In this document: positions 17,154 through 51,587 of the stretch, piece by piece
Layout of the letters: every line of letters starts with the position of its first letter
How positions within the stretch are numbered: the stretch's first letter is position 1
Source: Chryseolinea sp.
GTDB taxonomy: Bacteria > Bacteroidota > Bacteroidia > Cytophagales > Cyclobacteriaceae
Direction of reading: 5' to 3'
DNA length: 64,000 bases
NCBI GenBank assembly: GCA_041747735.1
Contig: JBGTEP010000106.1
Coordinates: forward strand, 2,980 to 66,979
Notes under the pieces: model-generated
Told to the model about the DNA's origin: nothing
Databases searched by the model: none
Seen by the model: the letters and a program-made list of their open reading frames with translations, nothing else
Translations under genes and position numbers: made by a program

Positions 17154-18509
17154 ATGAACTTCACAAGCATCAACCCATTCAACGGATCCAGGATAGGCAA
17201 TTATAAAAAACATAATGAAGCGGATGTTCTTAGGATAATAAACAAAGCACAGCAAACTTTTGATAGTTGGCGTAAGGTCTCGGTGAAAGAGCGTGCTGCG
17301 CTTATCTCAGCCGTAGGAGATGCCTTGCGGAAAAATACTGAAAAGTATGCGCGGATGATAACGCAGGAGATGGGAAAACCGATTGCGGAATCACGCGCGG
17401 AAATTAAAAAATGCGCCTGGGTATGTGATTATTATTCAGACCATGCCGAAAAATTGCTCGCTGAAGAAACGATAAAGACGGAGGCATCCTGGAGTTTTGT
17501 GAGACATGATGCTATCGGTTGTGTGTTGGCTATAATGCCATGGAATTTTCCTTTCTGGCAAGTATTTAGATTTGCGGCACCCGCACTTGCGGCAGGTAAT
17601 ACTGCCTTGCTAAAGCATGCACCCAATGTGTTTGGCTGCGCTACTTATATTTCCGATGCTTTCCGGGACGCGGGAATTCCCGATGGAGTATTTCAAAATC
17701 TTTTTATTGACACGGATGCTATTGGCGGCGTCATCGCTGACAAATCAGTGAAAGCGGTTACGCTGACAGGTAGCGAACGGGCAGGGTCTGCTGTGGCTGC
17801 CCTTGCTGGCAAACATCTAAAAAAAACTGTATTGGAATTGGGAGGAAGCAACGCATTCATAGTTCTTGAGGACGCGAATATTGCAGACGCCGTACGAATT
17901 GCTGTGACGTCAAGGATGCAGAACGCAGGACAAAGTTGTATTGCTGCAAAACGATTTTTAGTGGTCGAACAAGTATACGATGATTTTGTCGCGGGATTCA
18001 TATCAGAAGTTAAGAAACTGAAGTCAGGGGATCCCATGAATGAAACTACTCAGCTAGGCCCGCTTGCACGCATTGATCTCGCCAATCAACTACAACGGCA
18101 GGTTCAGGAGTCTGTCAAGGCTGGAGCGGAACTCCTCCTCGGAGGCAACCAGCAAGGTTGTTTTTATGAACCCACCGTTCTGGGAAACGTCACTCCGGGA
18201 ATGCCAGCATTTGACGAAGAGACATTTGGTCCGCTTGCACCAATGATCAAAGTGAGAGACGCAGCGGAAGCAATTAAGTTTTCAGAGATGTCTAGATATG
18301 GATTGGGTGTAACCCTCTTCACTCAAAATAAAAACAACGCCATGGCAATGGCTGAAGAGTTCACGGACGGCGCTTGCTTTGTTAATGAACTGGTTAAATC
18401 CGACCCAAGACTACCCTTTGGAGGGACGAAGTCCTCTGGTTATGGGCGAGAATTATCACGCGACGGCATGATGGAATTCGTGAACAGGAAGACGGTGTAC
18501 ATTAAGTAA
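17154..18509 (+). CDS. gabD: NAD(P)-dependent succinate-semialdehyde dehydrogenase
   Basis: MPWNFPFWQ, LKHA, TGSERAG, LELGGS, QSCIA, EETFGP, PFGGTKSSGYGREL. Confidence 0.85.
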   Translation: MNFTSINPFNGSRIGNYKKHNEADVLRIINKAQQTFDSWRKVSVKERAALISAVGDALRKNTEKYARMITQEMGKPIAESRAEIKKCAWVCDYYSDHAEKLLAEETIKTEASWSFVRHDAIGCVLAIMPWNFPFWQVFRFAAPALAAGNTALLKHAPNVFGCATYISDAFRDAGIPDGVFQNLFIDTDAIGGVIADKSVKAVTLTGSERAGSAVAALAGKHLKKTVLELGGSNAFIVLEDANIADAVRIAVTSRMQNAGQSCIAAKRFLVVEQVYDDFVAGFISEVKKLKSGDPMNETTQLGPLARIDLANQLQRQVQESVKAGAELLLGGNQQGCFYEPTVLGNVTPGMPAFDEETFGPLAPMIKVRDAAEAIKFSEMSRYGLGVTLFTQNKNNAMAMAEEFTDGACFVNELVKSDPRLPFGGTKSSGYGRELSRDGMMEFVNRKTVYIK

Positions 18510-46713: not shown

Positions 46714-46787
46714 TTGCATTATTTCTGCAATATTGTACTTATTGCATTATTTATGCAATAAATGTTAAATTGCATTATTTATGCAAT
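46714..46787. promoter_or_regulatory. Three phased palindromes TTGCAT-TATTT-ATGCAA (cores at 46714, 46742, 46770; 28-bp period); the third overlaps the satD ATG
   Basis: Read directly; copy 1 has one mismatch. Confidence 0.8.
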
Positions 46788-47425
46788 TTATGGTAATTCT
46801 AATGGCTGATATTGTCGGTAGCTCAAAACGCAAGGGCAAAGCCCTGATGGCTGATTTTAAAGCCGCAGTGGTGTGGGTGAATGATAAACATAAAAAGCAG
46901 ATAGCTTCTCCACTTACCATAACGCTTGGCGATGAGTTTCAGGGTGTAATCAAAACTTCGCTTGCAGCATTCTGCATCGTCTTTGACTTAGAAGAATACC
47001 TGATGAAATTGAAAAAGCCTTTTAAGCTGCGTTATGTTATCCATGAAGGGGAAATTGAAACTGAGATTAATAAAAAGATTGCCTACGAAATGCTCGGTCC
47101 CGGATTGACAATGGCACGGGAAGAACTGATTACTTTGAAGTCCAACAAAAATCGTTTCAGAATTAGTTTAAAAGATGAATCCCTTACCGAAAAGCTTTCG
47201 CTGAGTATGGTTATCTATCAGGGAATAGTCGATCAATGGACAGAGGCTCAACAAAAAGTTGTTTCTGTTTTTGCAACAGAACAAGGCGACTATCGAAAAG
47301 TAGCGGAGCGGTTAAAAAAAGATCCAACCGTAATGTGGCGACGAAAGCGATCGCTCATGATAGATGAAATCAATAGCTTGAAAAAGCTCATACTGCTAAC
47401 GATAGATCCCGCATGGCAGAAGTAA
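46781..47425 (+). CDS. SatD-family protein (nucleotide-cyclase-like N-domain + C-terminal HTH)
   Basis: MADIVGSS, ITLGDEFQG, MLGPGL..ARE; C-terminal YRKVAERLKKDPTVMWRR. Confidence 0.8.
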   Translation: MQFMVILMADIVGSSKRKGKALMADFKAAVVWVNDKHKKQIASPLTITLGDEFQGVIKTSLAAFCIVFDLEEYLMKLKKPFKLRYVIHEGEIETEINKKIAYEMLGPGLTMAREELITLKSNKNRFRISLKDESLTEKLSLSMVIYQGIVDQWTEAQQKVVSVFATEQGDYRKVAERLKKDPTVMWRRKRSLMIDEINSLKKLILLTIDPAWQK

Positions 47426-47751
47426 TCATTCGTTTTATTTTACTGGTGATTGTTGGTGAACTTATACTCCACATCCTTTTTTTATTGCTTAGCAAGTTAG
47501 TGGGGAAAACAGTTAAGGATAAGGTAAGCAGAACCAGTATCATAAAAGGTGTTCTTGAAAGAGGATTTATTGTTGTGTCCCTTTATTTCAATGTTTCCCA
47601 GGCTTTAACACTTTTAGGGGCACTGAAAATAGCCACACGCATAAAAGACACAGAGGATAAAGTTTCGAATGATTTTTTTCTTATAGGCAACCTCACTTCC
47701 GTGTTGGTTAGTATTTTATATTTCGTTTTACTTCAGCATTTATTGACATAG
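47413..47751 (+). CDS. Small 3-TM membrane protein, similar to the C-terminal half of DUF3307
   Basis: GVLER, LKIATR, FLIGNLTS; overlaps satD by 13 nt. Confidence 0.65.
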   Translation: MAEVIIRFILLVIVGELILHILFLLLSKLVGKTVKDKVSRTSIIKGVLERGFIVVSLYFNVSQALTLLGALKIATRIKDTEDKVSNDFFLIGNLTSVLVSILYFVLLQHLLT

Positions 47752-47755
47752 AGTA

Positions 47756-50683
47756 ATGAGCAAAAAGCAAAAACCAATTGTTCCAAAAGTAAACATACCG
47801 GTTAAAAGTAGTTCCGATGGGGGAGATGATATCATACATTCTATCGCCATTGATGGTATGTATCAAAACTGGTTTCTGGATTATGCGTCATACGTAATTC
47901 TCGAACGCGCCGTTCCTCGCATTGAAGACGGGTTCAAGCCCGTTCAGCGAAGGATTATGCACTCGCTAAAAGAGATGGACGATGGGCGTTTTAATAAAGT
48001 TGCTAACGTCATCGGAAACACTATGCAATATCACCCGCATGGAGACGCCTCTATTGGAGATGCTATTGTTAACATTGGACAGAAAGATATCCTTATTGAA
48101 ACACAAGGTAATTGGGGTGATGTCCGGACAGGTGACGGTGCGGCTGCACCACGTTATATCGAAGCACGGCTTTCAAAATTTGCTCTGGATGTAGCGTTTA
48201 ACGGGCAGACTACCGAATGGCAATTATCATACGATGGCAGGAAAAAGGAACCTGTTACTCTTCCGGTTAAATTCCCACTGCTGCTAGCTCAGGGCGTTGA
48301 AGGTATAGCGGTAGGGTTATCAACGAAAATTCTTCCGCATAACTTTTGTGAACTGATCAAAGCTTCAATTGATATTTTGAAAGGAAAGAACCCCAAGATC
48401 TATCCTGACTTTTTCACGGGAGGTATAGCTGATTTTTCTGAATACAACCAGGGGCTACGAGGCGGTAAGATCAAGGTTAGGGCACGAATGGATATTCTCG
48501 ATAAGAAAACACTGGTCGTCAGAGATATTCCATTTTCTACTACGACCACTTCGCTGATGGAATCCATTGTGAAGGCCAGTGAAAAAGGACAGATTAAAGT
48601 AAAGCAGGTAATCGACAATACAGCCAAAGATGTCGAAATACAAATCCTTCTTCAGCCAGGCCAGTCACCTGAGATTGCGCTGGATGCTCTCTACGCATTT
48701 ACCGACTGTGAAATCAGTATTTCACCAAACGCCTGCGTAATTGTTGAAGACAAGCCTAAGTTTTTACCGGTAGGAGAAATTCTGAAGTACAACACCAATC
48801 ATACGCTTCAGCTTCTTAAACAGGAATTGCAAATCCGGAAAGGGGAGTTGATGGAGAAAATACTGTTCTCATCGCTTGAAAAAATCTTTATCGAGAAACG
48901 TATCTATCGTGATATTGAAGAAGCAGAAAGCTGGGAGGAAGTAATCGATACAATTGATAAGGGCTTAAAGCCACATAAAAAGAAATTCTATCGTGAGATC
49001 ACCCGCGATGATATCGTTAGACTAACGGAAATCAGAATAAAACGGATTTCTAAATTCGATTCATTCAAGGCTGATGAACTGATGAAGGACCTTGAAAAGG
49101 AACTCAAAGAAACGGAACATCACCTCAGACATCTTACTGACTATGCGATCGCATACTTTCAAAACCTTCTTGAGAAGTATGGCAAAGGGCGTGAACGTAA
49201 AACTGAAATCAAGAGCTTCCAGTCAGTAACGGCAGTAGAAGTAATTGCCAATAACCAAAAACTGTATGTTAACCGTTCTGACGGATTCATCGGTTACGGA
49301 TTAAAAAAGGATGAATACATCTGTGACTGCTCTGAACTGGATGACGTTATTGTAATCCGTAAAGACGGTAAAGCACGAGTTTCACGCATTGCAGATAAAG
49401 TATTTATGGGCAAAGACATTTTGTATGTCGGTATCTGGAAAAAGGGCGACGACAGAATGGTGTATAACGTGGTGTACGCCGACGGCAAGAGTGGTAAAGG
49501 CTTCGCCAAACGCTTTACCATGCCTGGCATTACTCGTGATAAAGAGTATCCAATTGCAACAGATGATAAGAATTCCAGGATTTACTACGTTAGTGGTAAT
49601 CCAAATGGAGAAGCTGAAATGGTTGAAGTAAAACTATCGCAGGCGAGTACCGCACGGAAGAAGGTATTTGAATATGACTTCTCTGAGCTTGAAGTAAAAG
49701 GTCGCGGTTCCCGTGGGAATACGATCACGAAATATCCTATGCGTAAAGTTGACTTCCTCAAAGCGGGAACGTCTACTTTGAGTAAATTGAATTTGTGGTA
49801 TGATGAAGATGCCGGCAGACTTAATAAGGACAGTCGTGGGAAATACCTCGGCAAATTTGACGGCGATGACAAGATTATAACCTTTACAAGGAATGGTTCA
49901 TACAAAATCACCAACTATGAATTGACCAATCGTTTTGAGCCAGAGAAAACATTATTGGTTGAAAAATTCCATCCGAATAAACCTGTATCGGCTATCTATG
50001 TTGACGGTGAAAGTAAACAGCATATGGTGAAGCGTTTCATGATTGAAACTACAACGCAGGATAAGGAGTTTGGATTTATTACTGAATCAATTGGATCAAG
50101 GCTCGTGGTAGTGACCACTTCAGAATCTCCTGAAGTTGAGTTGGAATTAATAAAAGGAAAAGAAAAGGAGAAATCTGCTGAGGTTGTAAACCTGGAGGAT
50201 CTGATCGATGTAAAAGGCTGGAAGGCGCTCGGTAATCGACTTACACAGTTCAAGGTTTCAAAAGTTAACCTGGTGAAGGAAGAAGAAGCGGCGAGCGAAC
50301 AAGCTGATGATGAAAGCGATGATGAGACGCAACCCGACGACAATCGGGAAAAAAAAAAGAGTACCAGACTCAAGACCCCAACCAGTGGATTGAAGAAGGG
50401 GAACAAGCCAGTCTCTTCGGTGAAGCCGAAAAGCCAAAGCAAGCTCCCAGCCACCAGCAAAAAAGCGAGCCCACTAAAAAAGTCAAAGTCGAGCAGGCAA
50501 ACCTCTTCGGCGAAGAACCAAAAACCGAAGCCAGCCAAAAAGCAGGCAGTGGAGAAGAAGGTAGCAAAGAAAGTATCGAAGAAGATCGCAAAGAAAGTAG
50601 CGAAGAAAGTGGTAAAGAAGGCAGGGAAGAAGATCGCAAAAACATCGCCGAAGAAAACAGCAAAGAAGGGACGGAAGAAATAG
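47756..50683 (+). CDS. parC: DNA topoisomerase IV/gyrase subunit A, frame-0 product with a Lys-rich (xxKK)n tail
   Basis: DGFKPVQRR, YHPHGD, AAPRYIEAR (catalytic Tyr); downstream of parE. Confidence 0.95.
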   Translation: MSKKQKPIVPKVNIPVKSSSDGGDDIIHSIAIDGMYQNWFLDYASYVILERAVPRIEDGFKPVQRRIMHSLKEMDDGRFNKVANVIGNTMQYHPHGDASIGDAIVNIGQKDILIETQGNWGDVRTGDGAAAPRYIEARLSKFALDVAFNGQTTEWQLSYDGRKKEPVTLPVKFPLLLAQGVEGIAVGLSTKILPHNFCELIKASIDILKGKNPKIYPDFFTGGIADFSEYNQGLRGGKIKVRARMDILDKKTLVVRDIPFSTTTTSLMESIVKASEKGQIKVKQVIDNTAKDVEIQILLQPGQSPEIALDALYAFTDCEISISPNACVIVEDKPKFLPVGEILKYNTNHTLQLLKQELQIRKGELMEKILFSSLEKIFIEKRIYRDIEEAESWEEVIDTIDKGLKPHKKKFYREITRDDIVRLTEIRIKRISKFDSFKADELMKDLEKELKETEHHLRHLTDYAIAYFQNLLEKYGKGRERKTEIKSFQSVTAVEVIANNQKLYVNRSDGFIGYGLKKDEYICDCSELDDVIVIRKDGKARVSRIADKVFMGKDILYVGIWKKGDDRMVYNVVYADGKSGKGFAKRFTMPGITRDKEYPIATDDKNSRIYYVSGNPNGEAEMVEVKLSQASTARKKVFEYDFSELEVKGRGSRGNTITKYPMRKVDFLKAGTSTLSKLNLWYDEDAGRLNKDSRGKYLGKFDGDDKIITFTRNGSYKITNYELTNRFEPEKTLLVEKFHPNKPVSAIYVDGESKQHMVKRFMIETTTQDKEFGFITESIGSRLVVVTTSESPEVELELIKGKEKEKSAEVVNLEDLIDVKGWKALGNRLTQFKVSKVNLVKEEEAASEQADDESDDETQPDDNREKKKSTRLKTPTSGLKKGNKPVSSVKPKSQSKLPATSKKASPLKKSKSSRQTSSAKNQKPKPAKKQAVEKKVAKKVSKKIAKKVAKKVVKKAGKKIAKTSPKKTAKKGRKK

Positions 50684-50778
50684 TTCGTTCCGCTGAAGAG
50701 TCAAAGGACGACAAACGTGATGACGATGATGATGATGATACACTTGGCGTAGGCCAAACAGTAGAGTGGAAGGTGTAA
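50359..50778 (+). other. Startless -1 reading frame (139 aa, acidic) overlapping the parC tail, entered at A_AAA_AAG 50353-50359
   Basis: The -1 frame is blocked by TGA codons up to 50325 and open to TAA 50776-50778; contains EQASLFGE, EQANLFGE, D7 and TLGVGQTVEWKV. Confidence 0.7.
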
Positions 50779-50873
50779 GTGTTGTTGTTTCTAATTGGAA
50801 GGGTGGGAATTCACAATTAACATCTTTTACTTTTGTTAAACTTCAACTTGGATAAGCGTTGGATGCTTTTCTA

Positions 50874-50904
50874 AGCGTCGTCTTTTGAGATGCTATTTTT
50901 GTTT
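50874..50904 (+). terminator. Possible intrinsic terminator after parC
   Basis: AGCGTC-G-TC-TTTT-GA-GATGCT stem-loop followed by ATTTTTGTTT. Confidence 0.45.
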
Positions 50905-50987: not shown

Positions 50988-51587
50988 ATGCTTCAGCTAA
51001 CCGACGATAACGATCAAAACCTTTTTAAACGGATACAAAAAGACGACAGGTTTGCATTGAACCTGTTGTTCACACAGTATTATCAGAGACTTTGTTTTTT
51101 TGCCAATACATTTCTTCGCAGCACAGAAGAAGCAGAAGAAGTAGTAGCAGATGTATTTCTTACTATCTGGAAAAACCGTAAACACCTTTCTGTCGAGAAA
51201 AACTTTAAGGCATATCTTTATGTATCGGTCAGGCATGCTTCGCTTGCTATGTTAAAAAAGCGTCAACCGTTATTTGAAGACGTTGAGGATATTTTGTTTA
51301 GCACCAATCTTTTAGATGACAATGATCCCGGTCGGATTTTAGAACATAAAGAACTTCAGCACCAGTTATCCGTTGCGATAGAAAGTCTTCCGTCGCGTTG
51401 TAAGCAAATTTTTTTGATGAGCAGAATGGAAGCATTAACCTACCGCGAAATCAGCGAAGTGTTGGGAATTGCTGAAAAGACTGTTGAAAACCAACTTGTA
51501 AAAGCATTAAGCATTCTCCGCGATTGTTTGGGATATTATCAACGATCAAAACCTGGGCACCATCCTGCTCCCTTAACAGAAGCTTAA
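50988..51587 (+). CDS. ECF sigma-70 factor
   Basis: EAEEVVADVFL, LPSRCKQIFLMSR...YREISEVLGIAEKTVENQL. Confidence 0.95.
   Translation: MLQLTDDNDQNLFKRIQKDDRFALNLLFTQYYQRLCFFANTFLRSTEEAEEVVADVFLTIWKNRKHLSVEKNFKAYLYVSVRHASLAMLKKRQPLFEDVEDILFSTNLLDDNDPGRILEHKELQHQLSVAIESLPSRCKQIFLMSRMEALTYREISEVLGIAEKTVENQLVKALSILRDCLGYYQRSKPGHHPAPLTEA

Follow-up and report, generated by a model that had tools for sequence, protein, structure and literature searches.

A conserved hairpin and ten-adenine run in parC of Chryseolinea and relatives: a putative recoding cassette for two tails of opposite charge

Background

Recoding in bacteria is known classically from release factor 2 and dnaX, and to our knowledge conserved recoding in bacterial cellular genes is rare. 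Here we discuss a candidate for a further case, in the parC gene for topoisomerase IV subunit A of a Chryseolinea species (Bacteroidota; Cytophagales). The gene lies in a 64,000-nucleotide stretch of the genome (assembly GCA_041747735.1, contig JBGTEP010000106.1, positions 2,980 to 66,979), which we refer to as the window and whose own numbering we use. Towards its 3' end parC has a run of ten A residues (A10) with an RNA hairpin flush against its 5' side. Past the run the reading frame of the gene (frame 0) gives a lysine-rich basic tail and the -1 frame gives an acidic tail. We think it likely, from comparison with relatives, that hairpin and run form a programmed recoding cassette and that slippage at the run yields the two tails.

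In bacterial RNA polymerase the RNA:DNA hybrid is 9-10 bp, the same length as the parC run, and slippage is efficient from 9 A/T (PMC5009743); reporter constructs in E. coli showed 40% frameshifting with A9 and 63% with A11 (PMC3711429). In Thermus dnaX slippage adds one or more A's and gives about 50% of each product (PMC5009743). The likeness of parC to dnaX of Thermus thermophilus (tau/gamma), and to the A10-type dnaX genes of Antonov et al. 2013, is that all are essential genes of DNA metabolism with a run of 9-10 A's inside the open reading frame (ORF). However, in dnaX the shifted frames stop almost at once and gamma is a truncation, whereas the alternative frames of parC run for 60-140 codons and give tails of opposite charge. 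parC differs further in its conserved 5' hairpin and in being a topoisomerase gene. With regard to the hairpin, the likeness is to the IS630 transposase gene of Roseiflexus, in which a GC-rich stem-loop immediately 5' of a 10-nt slip motif, with a terminator-like geometry, stimulates slippage (PMC5009743). There the motif is U5C5, the change is a deletion of one base and the gene belongs to a mobile element, whereas in parC the motif is A10, the changes are most likely insertions and the gene is a core gene in many genera.

E. coli dnaX has the identical in-frame heptamer A_AAA_AAG, and a single tRNA-Lys (UUU) is common to both cases, but the 3' stem-loop of E. coli dnaX has no counterpart in parC, where the run extends beyond the seven bases of the heptamer and is also kept out of phase. 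In insect endosymbionts slippage at poly(A) tracts rescues interrupted genes. In the tssM gene of Citrobacter rodentium an A-run within the gene restores or varies the frame by poly-A transcriptional frameshifting, with length variants (PMC4256274). These are strain- or lineage-specific rescues, whereas the parC cassette is present in about 128 sequences of many genera, most of which need no rescue.

Disordered, charged C-termini that tune DNA binding, processivity or wrapping are known from actinobacterial topoisomerase I, with its Lys-repeat tails, and from E. coli GyrA, with its acidic tail. In these cases there is one fixed tail per protein, whereas the single parC gene would supply both kinds. 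Two broad surveys of recoding and full-text searches gave no case of recoding in parC, gyrA or any other topoisomerase gene, and parC would be the first found in the literature searched. Unusual for recoding are also the long tails of opposite charge, the presence of a segment encoded in up to three frames, and the repeated exchange of the default frame.

The parC gene and its two tails

The protein matches NCBIfam NF009397, "DNA gyrase/topoisomerase IV subunit A", over residues 29-869 with 1352 bits (cut-off 780), and also matches Pfam PF00521. Frame 0 reads CGG GAA AAA AAA AAG AGT across the run and stops at TAG 50681-50683 (other coordinates are in Table 1). The -1 frame is closed by TGA 50323-50325 and is then open from 50326 to TAA 50776-50778. 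Counted from GAG at 50359 it has 139 codons, and a product shifted at the run would have 868 + 139 = 1007 amino acids (aa). ATG, GTG or TTG is found in this -1 ORF only as the last codon. The acidic tail has two QxxLF motifs, EQASLFGE and EQANLFGE, whose DNA differs at four synonymous third positions as well as in the Ser/Asn codon; EYQTQDPNQWIEEGEQASLFGEAEK is an example of a peptide from this tail. An earlier note, written from the letters of the window alone, had reported the run, heptamer, frames, repeats and product lengths, and all of its coordinates agree with the sequence. Its interpretation is supported in part: the view that a single gene carries two tails of opposite charge, linked at a slippery run of A's, with a shift needed for the acidic one, is borne out.

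Conservation of the run

We searched for relatives in 40 species of the genus, 121 genomes of the family, 80 named genome contigs and 80 metagenome contigs. Many of the sequences are from metagenome-assembled genomes, and the counts of pairs and sums over species given below are phylogenetically non-independent. The run is present in a clade of Chryseolinea, Ohtaekwangia and other Cytophagales, in sequences from independent genome and metagenome assemblies, and it is kept, at the same junction, in all sequences that are at least 61% identical in the C-terminal domain and have DNA beyond it, with the exception of one (L018). In about 128 distinct relatives it is A10 in 118, A11 in 9 and A9 in 1. 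In the A11 cases a neighbouring CAA or AUC codon supplies the additional A, and in the A9 case the last A has become T, with the frame unchanged throughout. No A11 was found in Chryseolinea.

The run is found in three codon phases, xxA AAA AAA AAA, xAA AAA AAA AAG and AAA AAA AAA AUC, and AAA makes up only 47% of the Lys codons of the same genes. It is thus conserved as nucleotides and not as a KKK peptide. In the ParC tree the 21 outgroup sequences that have no run form one clade with 100% support, which indicates that the cassette arose once. The earlier note had foreseen that the run might prove to be A11 or A8, or that relatives might have a single tail and no slippery site; none of the relatives that we checked is mended by an A11 or A8, and they keep the run and both frames.

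The exception, L018 (G005:C562, also a Chryseolinea), has cleanly lost linker, run and QxxLF region by deletion, and its ParC ends ...DGEEQAAFGVGETIELDI* (...FGVGETIELDI*, the asterisk being the stop) straight after the C-terminal domain. The cassette is thus dispensable in at least one species, in which the last motif is retained. Relatives at 57% identity or less do not have the cassette, and their short tails end GxGDTIELDF* or QLGLF*. L142 and L200 represent a lineage whose C-terminal domain is 57% identical and which by this measure falls just outside the clade with the cassette; both carry an unrelated A9 run with a very short tail after it, KGRDNGNETFGIGTTIELDF*, and this run may be a precursor of the cassette or a decayed form of it.

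The acidic tail

Most relatives have a homologue of the window's acidic tail in frame, at the C-terminus of ParC. Of the 86 classified genome-derived sequences, 67 have the acidic tail in frame 0 (acidic-first) and 19 the Lys tail (Lys-first, the window included), and among metagenome sequences the figures are 29 and 1. The third frame was never frame 0 in the classified sequences of either kind. On the tree the Lys-first arrangement calls for 7 changes, of which well-supported branches force at least 5, and the swaps of default frame always go to the Lys frame and never to the third. Both arrangements carry A10. In DNA alignments the swaps map to indels in the linker that precedes the run, and never to the length of the run itself; the linker abounds in indels, and the run beside it remains A10.

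In Lys-first species the acidic tail can be followed past the stop of frame 0, and its -1 frame is intact in 19 of 19, with its motifs and the place of its stop conserved. In that part the ratio of nonsynonymous to synonymous differences per site (pN/pS) is 0.38 at a pS of 0.57, as compared with 0.41 at a pS of 0.72 for the acidic frame of species that have it in frame, and 0.10-0.12 for the gene body. There is no start codon before the acidic motifs in any of these species: 10 of the 19 have no ATG, GTG or TTG at all and the others have one only near the end. An internal start giving separate translation of the acidic tail was considered and rejected on this ground. Purifying selection on a segment that lacks a start codon and is situated beyond the annotated stop indicates that the acidic tail is reached only by a shift of frame. 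As judged from these comparisons, the result excludes assembly error, a dead remnant and independent translation. The suggestion of the earlier note that the acidic -1 frame is selected and needs a shift is thus well supported, by the pN/pS value, the absence of a start codon and the presence of the run in about 128 relatives.

The hairpin

In the window the 36 nt before the run fold with a minimum free energy of -8.6 kcal/mol. Over 91 unselected relatives the median for these 36 nt is -12.8 kcal/mol, as against -4.2 in random windows from the same genes and -5.8 in GC-matched control windows (p 2e-35). Folds of -8 kcal/mol or below are found in 81% of relatives and 11% of controls, and in 91% of sequences the 3' arm extends into the last 3 nt before the run.

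A common long form of the hairpin has 9 + 4 bp, for example GACGACUGA AACC GAAAAG GAUU C UCAGUCGUC followed directly by A10, and could be aligned without gaps in 44 sequences; the form in the window (Table 1) is shorter. In this alignment 79.7% of cells are paired, while shuffling gives 73.5 +/- 0.7 and sliding of the partner columns 23-47%. Ten of the 13 pairs have changed on both sides (5.5 +/- 1.3 in shuffles), and the number of cells changed on both sides is 38 (11.3 +/- 2.7 in shuffles), a figure that none of 500 shuffles reached. Some of the compensatory changes alter the protein, as in ACU...CAG to AAA...CUU. On the 3' side no conserved structure was found, either by run-anchored RNAalifold on 78 sequences (energy 0) or by folding of the 70 nt downstream (mean z -0.4).

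Possible use of the basic frames

In the case of the other two frames the evidence has to be weighed with more care, and the explanation to be set against a two-tail cassette is that only the acidic tail matters. The run and hairpin would then be otherwise used, or slippage tolerated; the out-of-frame species would be neutral or slightly harmful frameshifts rescued at a run that was already there, as in the insect endosymbionts above; and the basic tails would be purine-rich by-products. We think this rather doubtful, but it draws on several observations. The GAA/GAG repeats of the acidic tail are read automatically as AAG/AGA in the other two frames, the basic frames vary in length and identity by lineage, and one species, L018 above, has deleted the cassette. 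The openness of the Lys frame is also unremarkable in any single species: when the acidic protein was held fixed and its codons resampled synonymously, the Lys frame was open in 20-70% of trials, and openness in a single species was therefore rejected as proof of dual coding (resampling P 0.2-0.7). The stretch past the run is T-poor.

Openness of the Lys frame is informative only over a core defined by anchors and summed across many species. The core used here extends from the run to the last QxxLF motif (median 48 codons) and is independent of stops in the other frames. Over this core the 67 acidic-first species show stops in the Lys frame in 5 species where synonymous resampling predicts 32.6, and in the third frame in 9 where it predicts 61.3. 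For the 19 Lys-first species third-frame stops are found in 15, with 18.4 expected. The third frame is thus open in 58 of 67 acidic-first species and closes early in 15 of 19 Lys-first species. The composition of the acidic frame follows the same pattern, with T at 6-7% of third codon positions in the core as compared with 22-24% in the gene body. In acidic-first species T is at 2.7% where it would give rise to a third-frame stop and at 8.3% elsewhere, and Lys-first species are without such avoidance (9.3% and 6.1%). Synonymous change in the acidic frame is slower by about 40% in the overlap than it is beyond the overlap or in the gene body. Both alternative frames are basic, with median charges of +22 and +20, and the Lys frame extends for at least 25 codons past the run in 86 of 86 classified relatives.

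Our reading is that the alternative frames are probably translated often enough to be kept open and basic; the basic tail may have a role of its own, or may mainly serve to replace or remove the acidic one. Run and hairpin are maintained in sequences with no need of rescue (67 genome-derived, 29 from metagenomes), and in the 67 the avoidance of stops is specific to context and affects both alternative frames, which is difficult to reconcile with an acidic tail as the only product of value. The repeated swaps of default frame, at least 5 and always to the Lys frame, also argue against it. So does the clade L019-L024, in which the Lys frame is the tighter of the two in the overlap (pN/pS 0.58 for the Lys frame and 0.97 for the acidic frame, and 0.34 and 0.70). 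Five members of this group of Chryseolinea (L019 and L021-L024, with genomes of about 8 Mb) have a frame-0 basic tail of regular AKKAP/AKKAx repeats that resembles histone H1.

There are several points that weigh against the proposed two-tail cassette, in addition to the resampling result. Over the species as a whole the pN/pS of the Lys frame is 1.14 where it is not frame 0 and 0.78 where it is. The hairpins are weaker in Lys-first species (median -8.0 as compared with -13.6 kcal/mol). Some acidic-first species stop the -1 frame at once, which would give a tail-less product, and have a long Lys frame, while a few close the Lys frame early. The association of arrangement with closure of the third frame comes down, under phylogenetic control, to 5 independent pairs with p about 0.125. 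The basic product may be dispensable or just tolerated.

The earlier note held that both frames look selected, and this holds for the acidic frame, whereas in the Lys frame the amino acids are weakly constrained, and this only in species that have it as frame 0. That note also saw only two frames, and in many relatives the third frame, which is basic as well, has to be taken into account. With regard to the periodicity of KK pairs to which it drew attention, Tandem Repeats Finder (TRF) shows a real tandem array, but the periodicity is partly a shadow of the GAA/GAG repeats.

Probable slippage: transcriptional or ribosomal

We infer that it is probably RNA polymerase rather than the ribosome that slips. 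Transcriptional slippage is favoured because the hairpin is flush with the 5' side of the run, no conserved 3' structure was found, and the run is held at 10. As we envisage it, transcription of the run would make the whole 9-10 bp RNA:DNA hybrid rA:dT while the GC-rich hairpin forms at its upstream edge, and the transcript could slip back and gain one A. The A10 mRNA, read in frame 0, would give ParC with the +40 Lys-rich tail, and the A11 mRNA would give ParC with the ancestral acidic tail, its two QxxLF motifs and its conserved C-terminus. The ratio of the two products would be set by slippage. The cassette would have had a single origin in the ancestor of Chryseolinea and Ohtaekwangia and have been retained since; in most species the acidic tail would be the default and basic tails would be made by slipping, while at least 5 lineages would have swapped the default by linker indels.

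The composition of the source genome (6.2 Mb, 41.5% GC, a draft of 213 contigs) bears on this. It has 3240 A/T homopolymers of length 7, 1010 of length 8, 184 of length 9, 7 of length 10 and 3 longer. Runs up to length 9 are in excess (at length 9, 184 where 97 are expected) and those of length 10 are depleted (7 where 28 are expected). A/T runs of 10 or more look as if selected against, in keeping with a threshold for slippage that matches the hybrid of the polymerase in length. Of all runs of 10 or more in the genome, that of parC alone lies deep inside a long ORF, and of the 31 sense-strand runs of at least 9 A's in long ORFs it is the only one to precede two frames that are open for more than 100 codons.

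That the ribosome makes the shift, by -1 programmed ribosomal frameshifting on A_AAA_AAG (or on A_AAA_AAA in acidic-first species), either as the sole mechanism or alongside slippage, we regard as less likely, but there are good reasons to consider it and they count against the polymerase. Both in the window and in most relatives the heptamer has the right phase, and in Chryseolinea and the nearest genera the protected frame is the -1 frame in both arrangements. The genome also has a single tRNA-Lys (UUU), the condition that makes A_AAA_AAG shifty in E. coli (PMC5009743). ARAGORN found 36 tRNAs, with this one (18319-18392, complement, of its contig) and no CUU isoacceptor; however, the inventory is from a draft genome and a gene for tRNA-Lys (CUU) could have been missed. 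A rule that the -1 frame is always protected was considered as well and was rejected, since it holds in Chryseolinea and the nearest genera and fails in other acidic-first lineages.

Against the ribosome, the structure that is conserved sits on the 5' side and touches the run, and no conserved 3' stem-loop was found. For the ribosome 7 bases would suffice, yet 10 are retained. The phase AAA AAA AAA AUC is retained in species in which the -1 frame closes within 3-18 codons and the +1 Lys frame is long, and some Lys-first relatives have A_AAA_AAU in place of the heptamer. The "dnaX-type" label of the earlier note is thus not supported, as what would be the stimulator is a hairpin 5' of the run. 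Of the two routes that note had allowed, frameshifting and transcriptional slippage, the second is the better reading. Ribosomal and transcriptional slipping may nevertheless both contribute.

Other explanations

Phase variation at the DNA level, in which the length of the tract changes at replication to give heritable switching of tails and assemblies show the majority state, we consider very improbable. A10 tracts are mutation-prone and there are two frame arrangements among the species, but the arrangement is never tied to the length of the run, and both have A10. The 9 A11 cases and the 1 A9 case arose by change of a neighbouring codon or a point change, with the frame kept, while the swaps map to the linker. 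The 5' hairpin and its covariation would also be left unexplained.

Least credible of all is a homopolymer error in sequencing or assembly, with a true A11 and an ordinary single-frame parC, as although homopolymers are error-prone and the genome is a 213-contig draft, 18 other species of at least 5 lineages have the same out-of-frame A10, some of them in single-contig chromosomes, no Chryseolinea has A11, and the frame-0 Lys tail has an organised repeat array in its 107 codons.

Candidate clamp-binding motifs

QxxLF is present in the acidic tail of 86 of 86 classified relatives, with two motifs in 69 and one in 17, and the other two frames have none. The forms found are QASLF (53), QANLF (18), QQSLF (14) and QQDLF (11). 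The beta-clamp-binding consensus is QL[SD]LF, and QASLF and QANLF, which resemble it closely and are conserved, are candidate clamp-binding motifs. The acidic tail of relatives ends FGVGETIE[LFW]x[LIV], for which the equivalent in outgroups without the run is GxGDTIELDF. Among relatives without the run 16 of 42 have QxxLF 8 residues or fewer from the C-terminus, for example QLGLF* and QMSLF*.

ParC of other Cytophagales (L025-L034, L056-L074 and L143-L154) ends QLGLF*, QMSLF*, QMKLFK* or QLNLF*, and in others GxGDTIELDF*. QLGLF is the clamp-binding C-terminus of E. coli Pol II. Clamp-binding topoisomerase IV may be general in the Cytophagales; full-text literature searches gave no report of a clamp-binding ParC.

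As to the roles of the two tails, we suggest DNA binding for the basic tail and clamp tethering or auto-regulation for the acidic tail. The fullest form of this proposal, which we offer tentatively and with some reserve, is that there are two ParC isoforms by design, and three in some species, with the hairpin-A10 cassette setting their ratio. The acidic isoform would be tethered to the replisome by way of QxxLF and the clamp, and the H1-like basic isoform on bulk DNA, some 50-100 codons would be read in two or three frames, and the default isoform could be exchanged without touching the run.

Other features of the locus

The features of the locus are collected in Table 1. The tandem array near the end of frame 0 encodes (KKxx)n in that frame and an E/S/K-rich sequence of low complexity in the -1 frame. 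Loss of one A from the transcript, or gain of two, would bring the third frame into use and give a nearly tail-less ParC.

Table 1. Features of parC and of its 3' end, in positions of the window
Feature	Position	Strand	Basis
parC, frame-0 ORF, 975 aa, topoisomerase IV subunit A	47756-50683	+	ORF list, NF009397, PF00521
Variable acidic linker EEEAASEQADDESDDETQPDDN, from C-terminal domain to run	50273-50344	+	translations, DNA alignment
RNA hairpin: CCCGA (50333-37), loop CGACAA (50338-43), UCGGG (50344-48)	50333-50348	+	folding; abuts run
A10 slippery run	50349-50358	+	sequence; kept in relatives
In-frame heptamer A_AAA_AAG, possible -1 ribosomal frameshift site	50353-50359	+	sequence
Acidic tail, -1 frame, 139 aa, net charge -21, pI 4.4	50359-50778	+	translation; homologous to in-frame tail of relatives
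Lys-rich basic tail, frame 0, 107 aa, net charge +40, pI 12.0	50360-50680	+	translation
Third (+1) frame, 10 codons, then TGA 50391-50393	50361-50393	+	translation
EQASLFGE, first QxxLF motif, -1 frame	50401-50424	+	translation
EQANLFGE, second QxxLF motif, -1 frame	50491-50514	+	translation
Tandem array, period 12/24/48 nt	50554-50679	+	TRF
Conserved C-terminal motif TLGVGQTVEWKV of acidic tail	50740-50775	+	translation; 57-92 nt past frame-0 stop

Neither tail alone has a match in Pfam or NCBIfam, and with the 1007-aa shifted product the match to NF009397 grows only from profile position 857 to 862. A scan of the region with Rfam gave no family, the sole match being a chance one to a lncRNA (E 0.27).

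Directly upstream of parC are two overlapping ORFs, one of 214 aa (46781-47425) and one for a hydrophobic protein of 112 aa (47413-47751). A weak terminator-like hairpin is present at 50862-50879 (+), past the end of the acidic frame, and there is none between the two stop codons. The gene downstream, at 50988-51587 (+), resembles those for ECF-type sigma factors.

Implications

If the proposal is confirmed, it has a bearing on annotation, in that the standard single-frame reading of an out-of-frame species gives the basic-tailed protein only and misses the conserved C-terminus. There are cultured strains of both Chryseolinea and Ohtaekwangia, and the case is thus directly testable.

If the proposal is correct, parC would be a natural example, spanning genera, of hairpin-stimulated polymerase slippage in a core gene, and an essential gene with a long segment used in two or three frames. 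It would also suggest how bacteria without MukB might steer topoisomerase IV, to the replisome by a clamp-binding tail and to bulk DNA by a basic one, and this would be a new way to split a topoisomerase between replication-coupled and global decatenation.

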